Shown here: one piece after another, positions 16,700 through 38,708 of the stretch
Layout: every line of letters begins with the position of its first letter
Numbering within the stretch: position 1 is the first letter of the stretch
DNA from: a virus
Length of the DNA: 61,496 nucleotides
UHGV virus genome: UHGV-0350099
Strand: one strand, 5' to 3'
Program-made: the position numbers and the translations under genes
The notes under the pieces: generated by a model
Seen by the model: the letters and a program-made list of their open reading frames with translations, nothing else
Databases searched by the model: none
Told to the model about the DNA's origin: nothing

Positions 16700-16708
16700 A
16701 AACATCAT

Positions 16709-16730
16709 GATAAGTATTTACTTACTTATC
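16709..16730. promoter_or_regulatory. Palindromic intergenic motif GATAAGTATTTACTTACTTATC (dispersed family)
   Basis: Near-perfect palindrome of TAAGTA/TACTTA half-sites; one of about 15 similar intergenic sites. Confidence 0.5.
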
Positions 16731-16895
16731 TTTTATGTATAAGATGACTTTGTTTTCGTTGAGACGCGACTGTTTGAACTTAAATACAAGTGCAAACGAA
16801 GAAGTCTATCTGGCAGTAGCCTAATAAGCCAAACACCAGCGAGGTCAGTTTCCAGCCTCGTTACCGAAATGGGACACACTGAGCGAGTGTGATTG

Positions 16896-17015
16896 CAGAA
16901 CGCAGGAGGGAACATTCATGTTCCCTCCGATGAAGTAACAGAATGGGCGGTTGGTATATTTTCAACTCCATATGACTCCCGGATTCTTAGCCACTGACCG
17001 CCCATTCTGTTACGT
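16896..17015 (+). other. Two strong hairpins in tRNA leader region (candidate small structured RNAs)
   Basis: GGAGGGAACAT-TC-ATGTTCCCTCC (16896-16921) and AACAGAATGGGCGG ... CCGCCCATTCTGTT (16936-17015). Confidence 0.35.
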
Positions 17016-17087
17016 CATTTTGTTCAATTATGTCGTTTATACTGGGTTAAAAAGCGGCGACGTAGCCCGGCTGGTATGGTTAGCCAG

Positions 17088-17271
17088 CACACAACGTTGA
17101 GGCCATTACATTTTTATCAATTCTAAGGTTCTATTCACAGAGATACCGGCGAGCGTTGATATGTAACATGTTGGGCAAACATTCAATCGGAGTAGTGGCC
17201 TCAACGTTGTGAAGACAGGATTGTTGTGTAGGTTTAACCACTGTTGCCATTGGTGCCTGTTTTCACAACAA
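17088..17271 (+). ncRNA. Long hairpins with CACAACG...CGTTGTG stems (structured RNA family, unknown function)
   Basis: CACAACGTTGAGGCCAT (17088-17104) pairs with GTGGCCTCAACGTTGTG (17195-17211); TTGTTGTG/CACAACAA at 17221-17271. Confidence 0.35.
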
Positions 17272-17477
17272 ATGATTCCATACATCACATTGTATAAATT
17301 TCAAAGTAGGTGCTGTCCTCAGAAACATCATCTACTTAAAGATTTTGCCTTCTACTATTGAGCGAAGTCGAAAGCGTCTGGCACTAACGAAAAGTGCAAG
17401 TAGCGGTGCGTTTCCTGGCAGAAACTAAACCGTCGCGATTGGCACTGTTGAGTAATAAATACTGGCAGTGCTGAATT

Positions 17478-17552
17478 GATGGTGTAGCTCAGCGGTAGAG
17501 CAGTTGGCTGTTAACCAACTGGTCGGTGGTTCGAATCCACCCACCATCGCCA
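17478..17552 (+). tRNA. tRNA-Asn (anticodon GUU)
   Basis: Hand-folded cloverleaf: acceptor GATGGTG/CACCATC, D-stem GCTC/GAGC, anticodon loop CTGTTAA, T-loop GGTTCGAATCC, 3' CCA. Confidence 0.8.
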
Positions 17553-17557
17553 ATTTA

Positions 17558-17644
17558 GGGGAGTTAGTCCGTAGGGGCAGCGGGGTAGACTGTAAATCTA
17601 CTGTCATTGCGACTCGGGTGGTTCGACTCCATCACTCCCCACCA
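17558..17644 (+). tRNA. tRNA-Tyr (anticodon GUA), long variable arm
   Basis: Acceptor GGGGAGT/ACTCCCC, anticodon loop CTGTAAA, T-loop GGTTCGACTCC, CCA end; architecture like bacterial tRNA-Tyr. Confidence 0.7.
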
Positions 17645-17648
17645 AATT

Positions 17649-17724
17649 GCCGGTTTAGCTCAGTTGGTAGAGCGCCTGCCTTGTAAGCAGGATGTCAGCG
17701 GTTCGATCCCGTTAACCGGCACCA
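17649..17724 (+). tRNA. tRNA-Thr (anticodon UGU)
   Basis: Acceptor GCCGGTT/AACCGGC, D-stem GCTC/GAGC, anticodon arm CCTGC-CTTGTAA-GCAGG, T-loop GGTTCGATCC, CCA. Confidence 0.75.
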
Positions 17725-17732
17725 ACACAACA

Positions 17733-17944
17733 GGTAAGAGCATTGGGCGAATCGGCGATACTGACCCACAAGCCCGTAAATCGATAGAGTCAGACCAGTG
17801 CTCTTACCGTTGTGAGGAAGTGCAGCTCTTTGAAGCAACCAGAAGATAAGCATCTGGCTTCACAACACAACGATAAGATCATTACGGTTAATCGTCGTTC
17901 ATGTGCACAATGACTGGTCGAAAGGTAGTGATCTTACCGTTGTG
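17733..17944 (+). ncRNA. Three further long hairpins of the same family between tRNAs
   Basis: GGTAAGAGCATTGG/CCAGTGCTCTTACC (17733-17807); GTTGTGAGG/CTTCACAAC (17809-17857); CACAACGATAAGATC/GATCTTACCGTTGTG (17856-17944). Confidence 0.35.
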
Positions 17945-18044
17945 ATGAATGCACAGGCTGATGTGCCGCAACTACAGTAGTGCGCGCTTTGCGGGGCTTG
18001 CTACAACCCTGTGTCGGAGTTCAGCACCGACCATCACAATAGCT

Positions 18045-18131
18045 GGAGAGTAGGGAGCATGGTGCTCAAGCGGTCTTGAAATCCGTCCCATTGTGCAAAC
18101 GATGATGGTTCGATTCCATTACTCTCCGCCA
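18045..18131 (+). tRNA. tRNA-Ser(UGA)-like, long variable arm, possibly degenerate
   Basis: Acceptor GGAGAGT/ACTCTCC + CCA, anticodon loop CTTGAAA, T-loop GGTTCGATTCC; anticodon stem has a T-T mismatch and D-arm is atypical. Confidence 0.45.
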
Positions 18132-18133
18132 GA

Positions 18134-18211
18134 CACAGCGTTGAGCGGTTTGGCCTTTTAATCACCCAGATTAAGACTCCGCTAACATAAACCAGACCGC
18201 TCAACGCTGTG
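18134..18211 (+). ncRNA. 20-bp inverted repeat hairpin following tRNA-Ser-like
   Basis: CACAGCGTTGAGCGGTTTGG ... CCAGACCGCTCAACGCTGTG, same CAACG/CGTTG stem signature as upstream hairpins. Confidence 0.35.
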
Positions 18212-18287
18212 ATAGACAATTACGGCAGACGTTCTTAACCATAGCTTGCTAACATCCTAGCAACACTTTTTTTCAGCGCAAAATTCA

Positions 18288-18309
18288 AAGGGGCTTCGGC
18301 CCCTTTTTT
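18288..18309 (+). terminator. Rho-independent terminator after tRNA cluster
   Basis: GGGGC-TTCG-GCCCC followed by TTTTTT. Confidence 0.6.
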
Positions 18310-18352
18310 GCAACTGAAAGAGTCAAGTCTACGAACTTTGTAGGAAGAAATA

Positions 18353-28372: not shown

Positions 28373-28644
28373 AAGAATTATGGCGCTTGTTGAGGAAGTC
28401 ACTCCTCTTACGCACTTTGTTTTGCCATGCCGGCAGTTAGCTTCTGCCTTTGACTATTCATGCGGCAACCCCGCATTTCGCCACAATGGGCAATTCACTT
28501 TTATGGAATAAACTGGCCGTTGTGTCGATTTAATTAGCATGGCCTTACCATGCTAATTTATTCAACTTGTACAATCCTACAAATCTATCCACTCAGGCTT
28601 ACACCGTCTTCGTTATTGTAGAAATGAGGATCATCAGCGTTGAA

Positions 28645-28860
28645 TCAGCTTAGAGCAACGACATTTGCTGCTGCTGGGCCTTTAGCACCATTCTCGATAG
28701 AGAATTCGACCTGCTGGCCTTCTTCCAAAGTGCGGAAATTATTACTCTGAATTGCCGAAAAATGTACAAAAACATCTTTACTGCCATCAGCAGGAGAAAT
28801 AAAGCCAAAGCCTTTATCAGAGTTAAACCATTTTACTAAACCAGTCATTTTATTAGACAT
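28645..28860 (-). CDS. cspA: Cold-shock protein, CspA family
   Basis: [38 protein letters not shown]... with RNP motifs KGFGFI and VFVHF; start trimmed to MSNK. Confidence 0.9.
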
Positions 28861-29075
28861 AGATATTACCTTCTTAATTTTGTGAGCCACATAGTGCGGC
28901 GAGAATTTGATCTGTATAGATTGGGACTTACTTAGGCACTTAAGGAGGAGACTCACGAAGAAGGGAAATCAGAAGATAACACTGAACTGAGACTGCTTTA
29001 CTAAAACTGCTTACATAAGGTCTGTCTTGCAAACCAACGATGCTATTAACGCATACCCCTTCTTTTCATGCAACC
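28861..29075 (-). promoter_or_regulatory. cspA-type promoter and long 5' UTR
   Basis: On minus strand reads TTGCAT -35-like, TTAAT -10-like and a cold-box-like TGCAAGACAGACC; about 180-nt leader as in enterobacterial cspA (recalled from memory). Confidence 0.5.
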
Positions 29076-33143: not shown

Positions 33144-35483
33144 ATGGCAAAAGGAAAATCCGCACTGGCACTTGCTCTGAAAAAGAAAATCGGTAGCAAC
33201 GACGAAATTCAGAAAGTAACTCATTGGATTGATACAGGCTTTCCACCGTTAAACAAAGCTATTTCTGGTCGTTACGATGGCGGCTTCCCATGTGGTCGTA
33301 TCGTCGAAGTATTCGGTCCACCAAGCGCGGGGAAATGTGTTACCGCAGACACCATGCTGCTGACGGAGCGTGGAATGGTAACAGTGAAAGAGTTGTTTGA
33401 GATTGAAGGGTACAAAGCGACATGCACTACTCGCGATGTAGAGCATAACGTTGGACTCATCAATGAAAATGGCGTGATAGAGAAGACCTCACACCTGACA
33501 TGGAACAACCGTCGCAAATTCAAGCGTATTAAGCTGGCATCAGGCGGTTATATCGAGGCTACGTTCCGTCACCCAATCCGTGTGGTTGACGACTTAGGTA
33601 ATGTCGTCTGGCGACATGCTGAAAAAATCAGTGTAGGCGACACGATTCCTTCAATGGTTGGCACACATCAATTCGGCGATCAGCACCTGGATGCCAATAT
33701 CGCAAAACTGATGGGCTATTTAATTGCTGACGGATACGTGGCCTCTGAAAATTCAGTGAATTTTTCTAACACAGATCCTTTCATCAAGGATGAGTACTAC
33801 CGCCTCATTTCGCTGGTATCAGACAAGATGCCAGTTGCGAGAAAACATAACGGCTCGGAAGACCATGTGCTGTTTAGCAAAGAGGTGCGTTCGCTGCTTT
33901 TTAAAGAATATGGTCTGGAGTATGAGAAAGCTGCTGGCAAGCAGGTTCCGTTGAGTGTGCGTCGCGCCAATAGCGAGGCTCAAATTGCATTCCTTCGCGG
34001 CTACTTTGAGCTGGAATGCCACGTCAATGATGGTCGCTGCATTGAGGTTGTGAGCGCGAGTGGGCTGCTGCTACAGCAAATTCGCCTCATGCTCCTGAAT
34101 CTGGGGATTACGTCAACTATCTCTGAAAAACACGTCGCGGGTTATGAAAATACATATTACCGGCTGTCATTCAGTGGCTCTAATTACGACCTTTTTCTGT
34201 CAACGATTGGTTTCGAATCTCCGGCACGTTTATCAGTGGCAACCAAACGGGACATTGGTTTTGACCGCACTTACTCAGGCTATGTTCCGCACATCAGCGG
34301 CTTAGTGAAATCACTCTACGAGTCGCTCACCAAGACCACCCGTGAAGACTACGCTCTGGTAGACCACGTTATTGGCCGCGGCGATCGTGTCGGAATAGAC
34401 AAACTGCGAGAAATCTATGTCTCCTTCATTGGCAGAAAGAATCGTTTTAACGAGCATCTGTTTGCACAACTGGCAGCGGTAATTGGCTCTAACTTGTTCT
34501 ACGACGAAGTCGTGGCTATTGAGGAAGGTGAAGCACCAACGTTCGACGTAGCGATGCCGGAAACACACTCTTTCTGGTCTAACGGGATTATCAGCCACAA
34601 CACATTCCTTGCAACAGCAGCGATGATCTCCGCTCAAAAACAAGATGGTCTGGCGGTATTCCTCGATCATGAAAACAGTTTTGACGTTGGCCTGGCTGTA
34701 GCCAATGGCCTGAACGCAGATGAGGATGACGGTCAGTGGGTATACAAGCAGCCAGATACCTTCGAAGACTCTGTAGAGTTGATCGGCACAATACTTAAAT
34801 TGGTTCGTGATGAAGAGCTTATCCCCGAATCAGCACCTATCTGTATCGTGGCTGACTCTCTTGCGTCTATGGTTCCGAACTCCAAAGCCGAGAAGTTCGA
34901 AAAGATGGCTGAAGGCACAGCCAAAGACAAAGATCAGCTAAACATGAACGACAATACGGCACTGGCTCGTGCGACGAGTGCGAACTTCCCTACTCTGGCT
35001 TTGTGGGCACGCAAATACAACGCCTGCATCATCTTCTTGAATCAGGTTCGCACAAAAATCGGTGTAATGTTTGGCGACCCTACTACGTCGCCAGGTGGAG
35101 ATTCACCGAAGTTTTACGCTTCTGTGCGTATCCGTCTTGGTGCATCGGTGATGAAGGATGGTAAAGAGAAGATCGGCCAGGACGTAGGCGCAGAATGCAT
35201 CAAAAACAAAGTTGCACCACCGTATGGCAAATGCACCTGGAAATTCTACTTCGATCCTACTCGTGGCCTCGACGTTATCGAATCGCTCGTCGAGTACATG
35301 CTGGAAGAAGGATACCTGCCAAAGAACGCCAGCGGGCGAGTTGAAATTGGTGACAAGAAATACACCAAATCGCAGATCGTCGAGATGTATCGGGAGAAGC
35401 CACTGGCTGAAATCATTGCGGCTTTGCAGGCAATCGACGACCGAAGAGCAAAAGACAACCCCACCGAGTCAGTAGAAGAGTAA
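33144..35483 (+). CDS. recA: RecA-like recombinase interrupted by an intein
   Basis: Exteins: GRIVEVFGPPSAGK|...|TFLATAAM, AVFLDHENSFD, CIVADSLASMVP, IFLNQVRTKIGVMFGDPTTSPGGDSPKFYASVRIRLG match RecA core motifs. Confidence 0.85.
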   Translation: MAKGKSALALALKKKIGSNDEIQKVTHWIDTGFPPLNKAISGRYDGGFPCGRIVEVFGPPSAGKCVTADTMLLTERGMVTVKELFEIEGYKATCTTRDVEHNVGLINENGVIEKTSHLTWNNRRKFKRIKLASGGYIEATFRHPIRVVDDLGNVVWRHAEKISVGDTIPSMVGTHQFGDQHLDANIAKLMGYLIADGYVASENSVNFSNTDPFIKDEYYRLISLVSDKMPVARKHNGSEDHVLFSKEVRSLLFKEYGLEYEKAAGKQVPLSVRRANSEAQIAFLRGYFELECHVNDGRCIEVVSASGLLLQQIRLMLLNLGITSTISEKHVAGYENTYYRLSFSGSNYDLFLSTIGFESPARLSVATKRDIGFDRTYSGYVPHISGLVKSLYESLTKTTREDYALVDHVIGRGDRVGIDKLREIYVSFIGRKNRFNEHLFAQLAAVIGSNLFYDEVVAIEEGEAPTFDVAMPETHSFWSNGIISHNTFLATAAMISAQKQDGLAVFLDHENSFDVGLAVANGLNADEDDGQWVYKQPDTFEDSVELIGTILKLVRDEELIPESAPICIVADSLASMVPNSKAEKFEKMAEGTAKDKDQLNMNDNTALARATSANFPTLALWARKYNACIIFLNQVRTKIGVMFGDPTTSPGGDSPKFYASVRIRLGASVMKDGKEKIGQDVGAECIKNKVAPPYGKCTWKFYFDPTRGLDVIESLVEYMLEEGYLPKNASGRVEIGDKKYTKSQIVEMYREKPLAEIIAALQAIDDRRAKDNPTESVEE
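33336..34601 (+). mobile_element. Intein (422 aa) with LAGLIDADG homing endonuclease, inserted in the RecA P-loop
   Basis: Begins with Cys right after GPPSAGK, ends HN followed by Thr; LAGLIDADG-like LMGYLIADGYV and FLRGYFELECHV. Confidence 0.8.
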
Positions 35484-38224: not shown

Positions 38225-38708
38225 CCAACCACTGCGGTGAGTAGTCTGCTCACCGCATTCGTATCCAGCTCATTATCCACTGTAGTCAGTAACAAAACCT
38301 TCCTACATATCTGCTAACCACTGTAGCGAGTAGACAGCCTTTCATTCGCATCAAACAACCACTATGGTGAGTATTGGAGTGAGATGTCCAGCGGGTATCC
38401 ACTATGGTGAGTAAGCCTTTGCTGTTTTCAGTGGATATCCACTCGCCACAGTGGATACGCTCAAAGATGAGGGCGACAACAACCACTATAGACAGTAAAT
38501 TTTCCAAGATACCCAGTGACCACTAACCTCGCAGCCCTTGTTTCATCAGTGTTAGTGATCACTAACATTTAATTCAGTATTTGCATTCTACTGCCTACAG
38601 TGGTTATCAACAGATAACGATACTCACTATAGTGGATAGCGAATTACAGATATAAGTAAGGCTCACTACAGTGGATAGTGAGCCTTACTACTAACTACAG
38701 TGGTTGGG
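38225..38708. repeat. Iteron-like repeat array downstream of repA (incA-like copy-control candidate)
   Basis: About 11 copies of CCACTRTRG(N)GAGTA / CTACAGTGGWTA at roughly 40-bp spacing, both orientations; core CACTATAGTG is palindromic. Confidence 0.6.

Follow-up and report, generated by a model that had tools for sequence, protein, structure and literature searches.

Positions 16752-18309 of the virus genome UHGV-0350099, analysed here over a stretch of 61,496 nucleotides that we call the window, form a single plus-strand non-coding RNA island of an SSU5-like phage-plasmid. The island (~1.6 kb) combines a tag template resembling that of transfer-messenger RNA (tmRNA), four tRNA genes and at least seven long hairpins; no open reading frame (ORF) above 80 amino acids was found on either strand in 16700-18352, and the flanking genes lie on the + strand. 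The window is most closely related to two SSU5-like phage-plasmids, Escherichia phage CMS-2020a and Cyrano, with 95-97% identity across the island stretch, parts of which are also matched by phages P1, P7 and D6. An initial annotation, made from the sequence alone, had described a tRNA cluster embedded among at least six related long hairpins with two palindromes upstream. Both palindromes are present, and inverted-repeat search combined with folding defined six hairpins, A to F, with stems of 14-22 bp. These hairpins, which the comparative evidence below places in one family acting at the RNA level, are our main subject. The features of the island are:

16752-16830, + strand: tmRNA-like 5' block (GUUUUCGUUGAGACGCGAC...UUAAAUACAAGU) and tag frame, ~100 nt upstream of 16896, where the cluster had initially been taken to start
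16795-16830, + strand: tag frame GCA AAC GAA GAA GUC UAU CUG GCA GUA GCC UAA UAA, encoding ANEEVYLAVA and two stops
16831-16928, + strand: conserved structured segment 3' of the tag, with hairpins GCGAGG..CCUCG and CACACU..AGUGUG and a covarying palindrome
~16875-16891: palindrome CACACTgagcgAGTGTG
16905-16928: the covarying palindrome, 11-bp arms, 100% complementary
16930-17018, + strand: hairpin A, 22-nt arms, 22-27-bp stem GAUGAAGUAACAGAAUGGGCGG.. / ..CCGCCCAUUCUGUUACGUCAU with GUAACAG...CUGUUAC ends, z -7.9
17070-17088, + strand: small hairpin GCUGG-uaugguuag-CCAGC (pairs 352-357/365-370), one nucleotide 5' of hairpin B
17090-17211, + strand: hairpin B, class 2 stem CACAACGUUGAGGCCAUUAC/GUAGUGGCCUCAACGUUGUG, 20-nt arms, 82-nt cargo, z -6.8
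17206-17269, + strand: hairpin C, 14-nt arms, reversed polarity GUUGUGAAGACAGG...CCUGUUUUCACAAC (GUUGUG...CACAAC), z -3.2
17478-17552, + strand: tRNA-Asn (GUU), ARAGORN call, Rfam 75.5 bits
17558-17644, + strand: tRNA-Tyr (GUA), ARAGORN call, Rfam 39.7 bits, missing in phage Cyrano
17649-17724, + strand: tRNA-Thr (UGU), ARAGORN call, Rfam 73.1 bits
17726-17814, + strand: hairpin D, class 1 stem CACAAC-A-GGUAAGAGCAUUGG/CCAGUGCUCUUACC-GUUGUG, z -5.8, starting 1 nt past the CCA of tRNA-Thr
17815-17865, + strand: spacer 1, with inner hairpin CCAGAAGAUAAGCAUCUGG (17839-17857) and boxA-like GCUCUUUGA, bracketed by GUUGUG and CACAAC
17866-17944, + strand: hairpin E, class 1-like stem CACAACGAUAAGAUCAUUAC/GUAGUGAUCUUACCGUUGUG, 19-20 bp, z -4.6
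17945-18044, + strand: spacer 2, conserved ends AUGAAUGCACAGGCUGAUGUG ... CGGAGUUCAGCACCGACCAUCACAA around a variable middle, the ends also found in P1, HK629 and IME207
18045-18131, + strand: tRNA-Ser (UGA), ARAGORN call, long variable arm, unusual short D region, U.U pair closing the anticodon stem
18134-18211, + strand: hairpin F, class 2 stem CACAGCGUUGAGCGGUUUGG/CCAGACCGCUCAACGCUGUG, 20-nt arms, z -11.1, starting 2 nt past the CCA of tRNA-Ser
~18246-18276: second terminator candidate, UUGCUA..UAGCAA followed by U7
18290-18309, + strand: terminator-like GGGGC-UUCG-GCCCC (GGGGCUUCGGCCCC) followed by U6, 3' of hairpin F, closing the non-coding unit

Hairpins and tRNA genes of the island

Hairpins A-F are packed far more densely than shuffled sequence predicts, which bears out the picture of a tRNA cluster set among them. 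The whole 61-kb window has six + strand hairpins with a stem of at least 17 nt and a loop of at least 25 nt, and four of them fall inside this 1.3 kb; 30 dinucleotide shuffles gave a chance level of 1.6 such hairpins per 61 kb, or ~0.03 expected per 1.3 kb. Hairpin C folds with a z-score of -3.2, and the other five hairpins reach -4.6 to -11. The loops measure 36-82 nt, and not the 45-90 nt first given for them. B, D, E and F share the ends CACA(A/G)C...G(C/U)UGUG; the GUUGUG of hairpin C is also part of the 3' arm of B, and the spacers that separate D, E and tRNA-Ser both have a bracket like that of C, GUUGUG...CACAAC. Placement is likewise regular. The hairpins start 1-4 nt past the CCA end of a tRNA (D and F) or past a small 5-bp hairpin (B and the P1 copies), the small hairpin at 17070-17088 holding the place before B that a tRNA 3' end holds before D and F.

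Comparison of nine relatives showed that the stem of A is kept with G.U and compensatory changes around a variable, unconserved apex, that C is maintained by compensatory changes, and that the segment 16831-16928 has pairs (163-173/197-207) with double-sided changes. The 3' flanks of the hairpins are purine-rich (AUGAAG, GUGAAU, AUAGAC, AGGAAG) and carry no U-run. With such flanks and loops of this length the hairpins were rejected as intrinsic terminators, and only the element at 18290-18309 is terminator-shaped; it was read off the sequence, is kept in Cyrano and CMS-2020a, and is not listed by the consensus scan.

All four tRNA genes named in the initial annotation (Asn, Tyr, Thr and Ser) were called by ARAGORN, and the first three pass the gathering cut-off of 29 bits of the Rfam tRNA model (RF00005). 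In the particular case of tRNA-Ser, the only Rfam match is to the tRNA-Sec model, at 41.1 bits against a cut-off of 47. The imperfect anticodon stem reported for this gene is real: most relatives have A at position 39 (U-A) and some have G (U.G), but in the rare allele of the window it is U, which makes the loop-closing pair U.U. The suggestion that the gene is decaying did not hold up, because the 87-nt gene is almost unchanged across P1-like (D6), SSU5-like and Klebsiella relatives, its variable arm shows a compensatory double change (C-G to U-A) among them, and the single U.U occurs only in the allele of the window. Judged by this conservation, tRNA-Ser looks like a maintained, structurally unusual tRNA more than a decaying one. 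The tRNA-Sec model also scores it above the general tRNA model, and some of its homologues are labelled 'tRNA-OTHER' by PGAP; it may be a structurally atypical serine tRNA, Sec-like or allo-tRNA-like.

One hairpin family with exchangeable cargo

Relatives of the hairpins were gathered by pattern scans of IMG/VR, where more than 170 loci yielded 81 distinct hairpins of the tRNA strand. The family is built on two basal stems, class 1 (CACAAC-A-GGUAAGRGCAUU..) and class 2 (CACARCGUUGAG-NNN-AYUGG). The outer stem is 19-21 bp long in 63 of the 81 and ends in 5'-CACARC and GYUGUG-3', and one and the same bulged A is present in 41. Towards its apex the stem also keeps a U.G or U-A pair, and the 3' flank is purine-rich. 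Many family members are placed 2-3 nt away from the 3' end of a tRNA.

The strand on which these elements pair can be read from their mismatches. On the tRNA strand, the 81 hairpins contain 134 G.U pairs versus 5 A.C mismatches, and on the opposite strand the same elements mispair at one fixed column. A covariance analysis across related elements, proposed in the initial annotation as a check, supported the stem as well. Among 48 distinct basal stems aligned, 95.9% of cells are paired and 12 of the 20 pairs show changes on both sides, a level of pairing and covariation reached by 0 of 500 shuffles, with slid-register controls at 35-56% paired. Since G.U pairs are confined to the tRNA strand and the changes are compensatory, the folded form of the family is RNA or, at the least, a single strand with the polarity of the tRNAs. 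On these alignments we regard the hairpins as real RNA-level elements of the tRNA strand that belong to one family. Of the initial reading, the placing of the tRNAs inside a related hairpin family that acts at the RNA level thus stands, and the decay of tRNA-Ser does not. The hairpin is sense to the adjoining genes or tRNAs in all six of the other phages with readable orientation. Action at the RNA level is also a precondition for the initial suggestion of processing signals or small stable RNAs.

The family appears not to have been described before. Rfam scans with gathering and E-value cut-offs, run on the window, on relatives and on single hairpins, matched no family to any hairpin, and we found no paper on the hairpin family in literature on P1 ban-leader RNAs and phage-plasmid small RNAs (the P1 genome paper was not covered). 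No conserved small ORFs lie inside the hairpin loops. A covariance model (R1) in which the two arms of the basal stem were linked by GAAA, run with filters off, missed the true hairpins, the long apical inserts not being spanned. Its best match, 43 nt with CACAAC/GUUGUG-like ends at 28482-28524 on the - strand (E 0.03), is probably due to chance and lies near a cspA-like element.

Between them, the class 1 and class 2 stems are topped by more than 20 apical domains, 7-82 nt long and unrelated to one another. Within the cargo of B, two apical hairpins keep their loops (YCACAGAG and UUGGG) and have stems that covary, and the cargo of F keeps the loop motif AAGACUCCGC; other cargo is wholly different between close relatives. 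A T-arm-like cargo occurs in a few relatives (GGGUUCGAAUCCC in P1, GAGUUCGACUCUC in CMS-2020a SCU-175), and is not in the window copies, which have no tRNA-model match at E up to 10. Whole modules also come and go: Cyrano is without tRNA-Tyr, D and E, CMS-2020a SCU-107 lacks D, SCU-175 has different hairpins, and the relative L080 lacks exactly module B. The deletion joints fall within CACAAC or CAACGTTG, and joints inside the arms point to recombination between repeated arms, not to transposition. We conclude that a hairpin of this kind is a fixed stem scaffold with exchangeable cargo. Processing or structural RNA stems are a known kind of element; what appears to be new is their form as scaffold plus cargo, together with the conserved ends and the association with a tag RNA.

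Spread across phages and the tag template

Phage P1 has four such hairpins in the C1-controlled leader of its ban operon (positions 1666-1748, 2106-2192, 2332-2425 and 2608-2686 of the P1 stretch L002). Three of the four, together with two conserved spacers, underlie the opposite-strand ORFs plp ('putative lipoprotein') and upl (L002 2075-2644, equal to NC_005856 69472-70041), which are probably mis-annotations of a non-coding RNA region. A sensitive search placed the class-1 stem and its 3' flank, with unrelated cargo, in five more phages. In the lambdoid phage HK629 the hairpin belongs to the late leader, with an HNH gene on one side and the holin gene on the other; in Sashavirus Sasha and Nonanavirus PJ16 it is between head and tail genes; in Phapecoctavirus DE16 it comes straight after a tRNA, and in Shuimuvirus IME207 it lies upstream of tRNAs. 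The spacer-1 module (inner hairpin CCAGAAGAUAAGCAUCUGG with its flanks) is also found in P1, Sasha, PJ16 and the PL-N leader of the P22-like phage epsilon34. In Salmonella phage epsilon34 (L166 1500-1560), CCAGAAGAUAAGCAUCUGG is downstream of a lambda-like boxB (CGGCUGAAAAGCCG), where the RNase III site of lambda sits. A boxA/nut reading of spacer 1 was rejected, as the boxA-like part is unconserved in Sasha and PJ16, and so was a C/D-box-like UGAUGA...CUGA after hairpin E, unconserved in P1.

In bacteria, 780 out of 5,426 complete E. coli genomes contain the island or parts of it, and 188 contain 80% of it or more. The matches are nearly always on plasmids, where the annotation consists of tRNAs only. 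One scan of species-representative genomes with the class-1 stem pattern gave three matches, in two Escherichia assemblies and one Cellvibrionaceae-labelled metagenome-assembled genome, and so few matches do not support a link to chromosomal rRNA intervening sequences. Separately, 33 nt at 17078-17110, spanning part of the small hairpin and the 5' arm of B, are 100% identical to a chromosomal CRISPR spacer in an annotated array of E. coli SC418 (NZ_LR778147.1 1705873-1705905; L252 401-433), which indicates that the phage-plasmid family is naturally targeted by CRISPR at the spot of hairpin B.

The tag frame at the start of the island encodes ANEEVYLAVA. The ssrA tag of E. coli is ANDENYALAA, and the two are closely similar. 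A ten-codon frame and stop are kept in all relatives, as ~20 variants over more than 190 loci, for example ANDDLMMVAA in P1, ANEDTYLAVA in SSU5, ANDNQYLAVA in pJN2-26 and ANEERFLMAA in PJ16. The tag is conserved in P1-like, SSU5-like and 9NA/Sasha-like phages, and is annotated neither in P1 nor by PGAP. Indels of 1-2 nt just 5' of the tag rule out an ordinary ORF. The block ahead of it, GUUUUCG...CGAC...UAAAU, resembles the 5' part of tmRNA with its resume context, and the frame itself runs from a resume codon to a hydrophobic, Ala-rich C-terminus followed by a stop, as a tmRNA tag does. Covariance models give weak matches to this region: the beta_tmRNA model aligns to 16782-16875 at 14.4 bits (E 0.008, gathering 84) and to PJ16 at E 6-9e-4, far under gathering, and the tmRNA_permuted model reaches 16.4 bits versus a gathering cut-off of 47.

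The rest of a tmRNA was not recognised. Within the window we could identify no tRNA-like domain, which would comprise an acceptor stem with G3.U70, a T arm and a 3' CCA, and there is no T loop beyond those of the four tRNAs. ARAGORN made no tmRNA call in the window or its close relatives at default settings; at an 85% threshold it made just a weak permuted tmRNA call, in P1. No conserved acceptor pairing emerged from RNAalifold (nine SSU5-type and ten 9NA-type sequences) or from manual pairing of GUUUUCG with CGAAAA. The 3' arm of B was also considered as a pairing partner for the 5' block CGUUGAGAC and rejected, the variants L101 and L149 showing no compensatory change. A search of the literature for phage tmRNA and for the tag strings returned nothing relevant.

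In 9NA/Sasha-like phages the tag RNA forms a conserved core of ~170 nt with a class-1 hairpin directly after it. Read from the sequence, the unit has a promoter-like TTGACC before the 5' block and a terminator-like hairpin with a U-run at its end. With a class-1 hairpin right after the tag core here, hairpins and tag RNA co-travel in several lineages; HK629, DE16 and IME207 have the hairpin alone. Three IMG/VR contigs with 9NA-like tag RNAs (L174, L176 and L221) carry canonical-looking T arms (GGUUCGAUUCC) in or beside long hairpins downstream of the tag, and L221 has a possible ...CCCUGGAACCA 3' end that pairs with an upstream UUCCAGG. ARAGORN made no call on the T-arm stretches of the three contigs. 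These T arms may be pieces of a split tRNA-like domain. One hypothesis, very doubtful in our view, is that P1-like, SSU5-like and 9NA/Sasha-like phages encode a split trans-translation system: a tag RNA without a tRNA-like domain of its own would be joined by hairpins that serve as a programmable processing scaffold delivering interchangeable RNA modules out of a single precursor, T-arm-bearing tRNA-like pieces among them in some phages, and the phage could rescue or re-tag stalled host ribosomes by means of a degradation tag of its own.

Possible functions of the hairpins

There are several possible explanations for such hairpins. The one that we favour, as a possibility somewhat short of probable, is that the island is a polycistronic non-coding RNA operon in which the hairpins display variable cargo and serve as processing or clamp stems, probably as substrates of RNase III. 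RNase III of E. coli requires a near-perfect duplex of ~20 bp, and it excises rRNAs, the 23S intervening sequences and DicF. The hairpins have a duplex of 19-21 bp, mostly Watson-Crick, that closes an RNA segment. Under this proposal, the island would be transcribed as a polycistronic precursor whose near-perfect stems, each about two helical turns long, would be processed as duplexes or serve as clamps. Cleavage within a stem would separate adjacent tRNAs and the tmRNA-like RNA, and would free the apical domains, each still protected by a short duplex. Conserved cargo (the YCACAGAG and UUGGG loops of B, the loop motif of F) could become a small stable RNA on its own, and the common arms would double as recombination homology through which modules are gained, lost and swapped.

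Several points weigh against this proposal. RNase III as the nuclease is a guess, and this enzyme needs no conserved sequence of 12-14 bp, while the stem sequence is conserved well beyond structural need; such excess conservation points to a sequence-specific partner, concerted evolution or recent horizontal spread. Tandem hairpins such as D-spacer-E, with nothing between them to separate, are superfluous for tRNA release, and some members of the family have a loop of 7-9 nt and hence no cargo. The consensus scan found no promoter in the island stretch. In P1, CRISPR interference showed trnT, plp and upl to be non-essential for plaque formation (PMC10695390), so that any role would be dispensable in the laboratory.

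The same conservation can be turned to a different account, in which the hairpins are themselves the products, small regulatory or decoy RNAs whose stem is stabilising or protein-binding and whose apex gives specificity as a seed or tRNA-like decoy, processing being secondary. Apart from stem sequence conserved past structural need, this is favoured by the apical loops of B and F, which are kept while the rest drifts, by the same cargo on different stems (UAGGGGUAUGU..GGG in PJ16 and IME207, T-arm cargo in P1 and L176), and by the T-arm-like character of GGGUUCGAAUCCC or GAGUUCGACUCUC in P1 and CMS-2020a SCU-175. Most cargo, however, is unconserved among close relatives and some members are free of it, no target complementarity was identified, and the Rfam tRNA, YrlA and small-RNA models miss the window copies; we consider this account unlikely, though deserving of attention. 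Quite unlikely, in our estimate, is an architectural role in which A-C are the body helices of a phage tmRNA-like RNA, replacing pseudoknots PK2-PK4, with D-F as duplicated copies. The tag frame and 5' block lie immediately upstream, as this would predict, and the 9NA/Sasha-like core directly precedes a class-1 hairpin, with T-arm-like cargo there in L174 and L176; yet the window offers no tRNA-like domain and no default ARAGORN tmRNA call, the hairpins of HK629, DE16 and IME207 occur without a tag, and D-F lie beyond three tRNAs.

Elements acting as DNA, either miniature inverted-repeat mobile elements or attC-like sites of single-strand recombination, would share the conserved ends, variable centre and size (48-122 bp) of the hairpins, their polymorphism and their presence in unrelated genomes, and a tyrosine integrase gene lies ~950 bp downstream of the island. 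We hold this to be very improbable. Filled and empty sites show no target-site duplications and the joints in the arms fit homologous recombination; class-2 stems pair perfectly and leave no base extrahelical; the integrase is of ordinary phage type and is not beside the island in SSU5, pJN2-26 or P1; and the hairpins, whose interiors are unrelated, keep a fixed register to tRNA 3' ends and never run antisense to transcription. An integron attC identity was rejected specifically, as ACACAAC/GTTGTGR departs from the core RYYYAAC...GTTRRRY at two positions, class 2 has no extrahelical base and the integrase has Phage_integrase and Phage_int_M domains, and a mobile element of MITE, Correia or ERIC type was rejected for its unrelated interiors, missing duplications and sense-only orientation. 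Scarcely credible, finally, is that the hairpins are decayed tRNA genes or, as annotated on the homologous P1 stretch (plp, upl), opposite-strand small proteins. T-arm-like sequence in the cargo of P1, L174 and L176 is what decay might leave, but the window copies fail to match tRNA models even at E up to 10 and a closing stem of 20 bp is foreign to tRNA; as for coding, module indels and compensatory stem changes dominate over codon-like variation, and pairing holds only on the strand opposite plp and upl.

Comparison with known systems helps to place the processing-stem proposal. The rRNA stalks cut by RNase III and the 23S intervening sequences of Salmonella and Yersinia likewise have a duplex of ~20 bp or more flanking an RNA segment in a tRNA-bearing polycistronic non-coding transcript, and the intervening sequences are also alike in size (~90-110 nt), in their variable apex and in their sporadic occurrence among close relatives. 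The phage stems differ in their conserved CACAAC/GUUGUG ends, in short variable cargo that is not rRNA, and in being confined to phages, as judged from the three matches in one class-1 scan of species-representative genomes, and their cleavage would be by analogy. The Correia/NEMIS elements of Neisseria and the enterobacterial ERIC elements are intergenic, co-transcribed inverted repeats of 80-150 nt that form long mRNA hairpins, are polymorphic among strains and serve as substrates of RNase III/E; unlike the phage hairpins, they have a conserved interior, target-site duplications and either orientation. The likeness to tmRNA (ssrA, two-piece or permuted) lies in the resume context, the ten-codon tag AN(D/E)x..(L/M)x(A/V)A with its stop or stops, the 5' block and the weak model matches over the coding region, whereas no acceptor stem, T arm or CCA is recognised, and tRNAs and long hairpins stand where the pseudoknots and 3' half would be expected.

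A further parallel is the bacterial Y RNA YrlA, which has an end-to-end long stem with an apical module; in a few relatives, such as SCU-175 (L004:2801-2887), even the order of T arm, closed acceptor-like and D-like hairpin is alike. Most phage cargo, in contrast, is not tRNA-like, and no Ro/TROVE gene is present among the 20 window ORFs scanned. YrlA (RF02553) was also rejected directly, with no hairpin match at E up to 10 and a spurious match across two adjacent tRNAs. Phages do have small structured RNAs that are co-transcribed with tRNAs or in leaders and released by host RNases, namely the species 1/2 RNAs of T4, the C4 RNA of P1/P7 (RNase P) and DicF (RNase III/E), and P1 has an annotated dicF-like region in the same ban-operon leader; in contrast to this likeness in setting, there is no sequence or model similarity between them and the phage hairpins. 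To our knowledge, a common 20-bp scaffold with an exchangeable apex and spread across families has not been described for any of these RNAs.

P1 is among the most studied phages, and SSU5-like phage-plasmids are found in a large share of clinical Enterobacteriaceae, but the island stretch has so far been annotated as tRNAs or as doubtful opposite-strand ORFs (plp, upl). If our reading is true, the hairpins would represent a new class of phage non-coding RNA, a horizontally shared scaffold with exchangeable cargo; this would account for the maturation of mixed tRNA/non-coding RNA operons, and the scaffold could be a ready-made tool for small-RNA expression. The tag template would also make it worth asking if phages interfere with ribosome rescue and the tagging of proteins.

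The remainder of the window encodes a ParA-like ATPase, a DnaB-like helicase, a primase, an ATP-dependent ligase and a phage integrase, as well as CobT/AAA proteins, a DNA polymerase III alpha subunit, a gp32-like protein and a 5'-3' exonuclease. At 33144-35483, an intein bearing a LAGLIDADG homing-endonuclease domain splits a RecA-like protein. A cluster of GTATCCACT/AGTGGATAC repeats, in direct and inverted orientation, occupies 38274-38458 and has an iteron- or operator-like look. At 28620-29038 on the - strand, a full-length match to the cspA thermoregulator (187.6 bits) indicates that this phage-plasmid carries a cold-shock-type cspA 5' untranslated region and gene.

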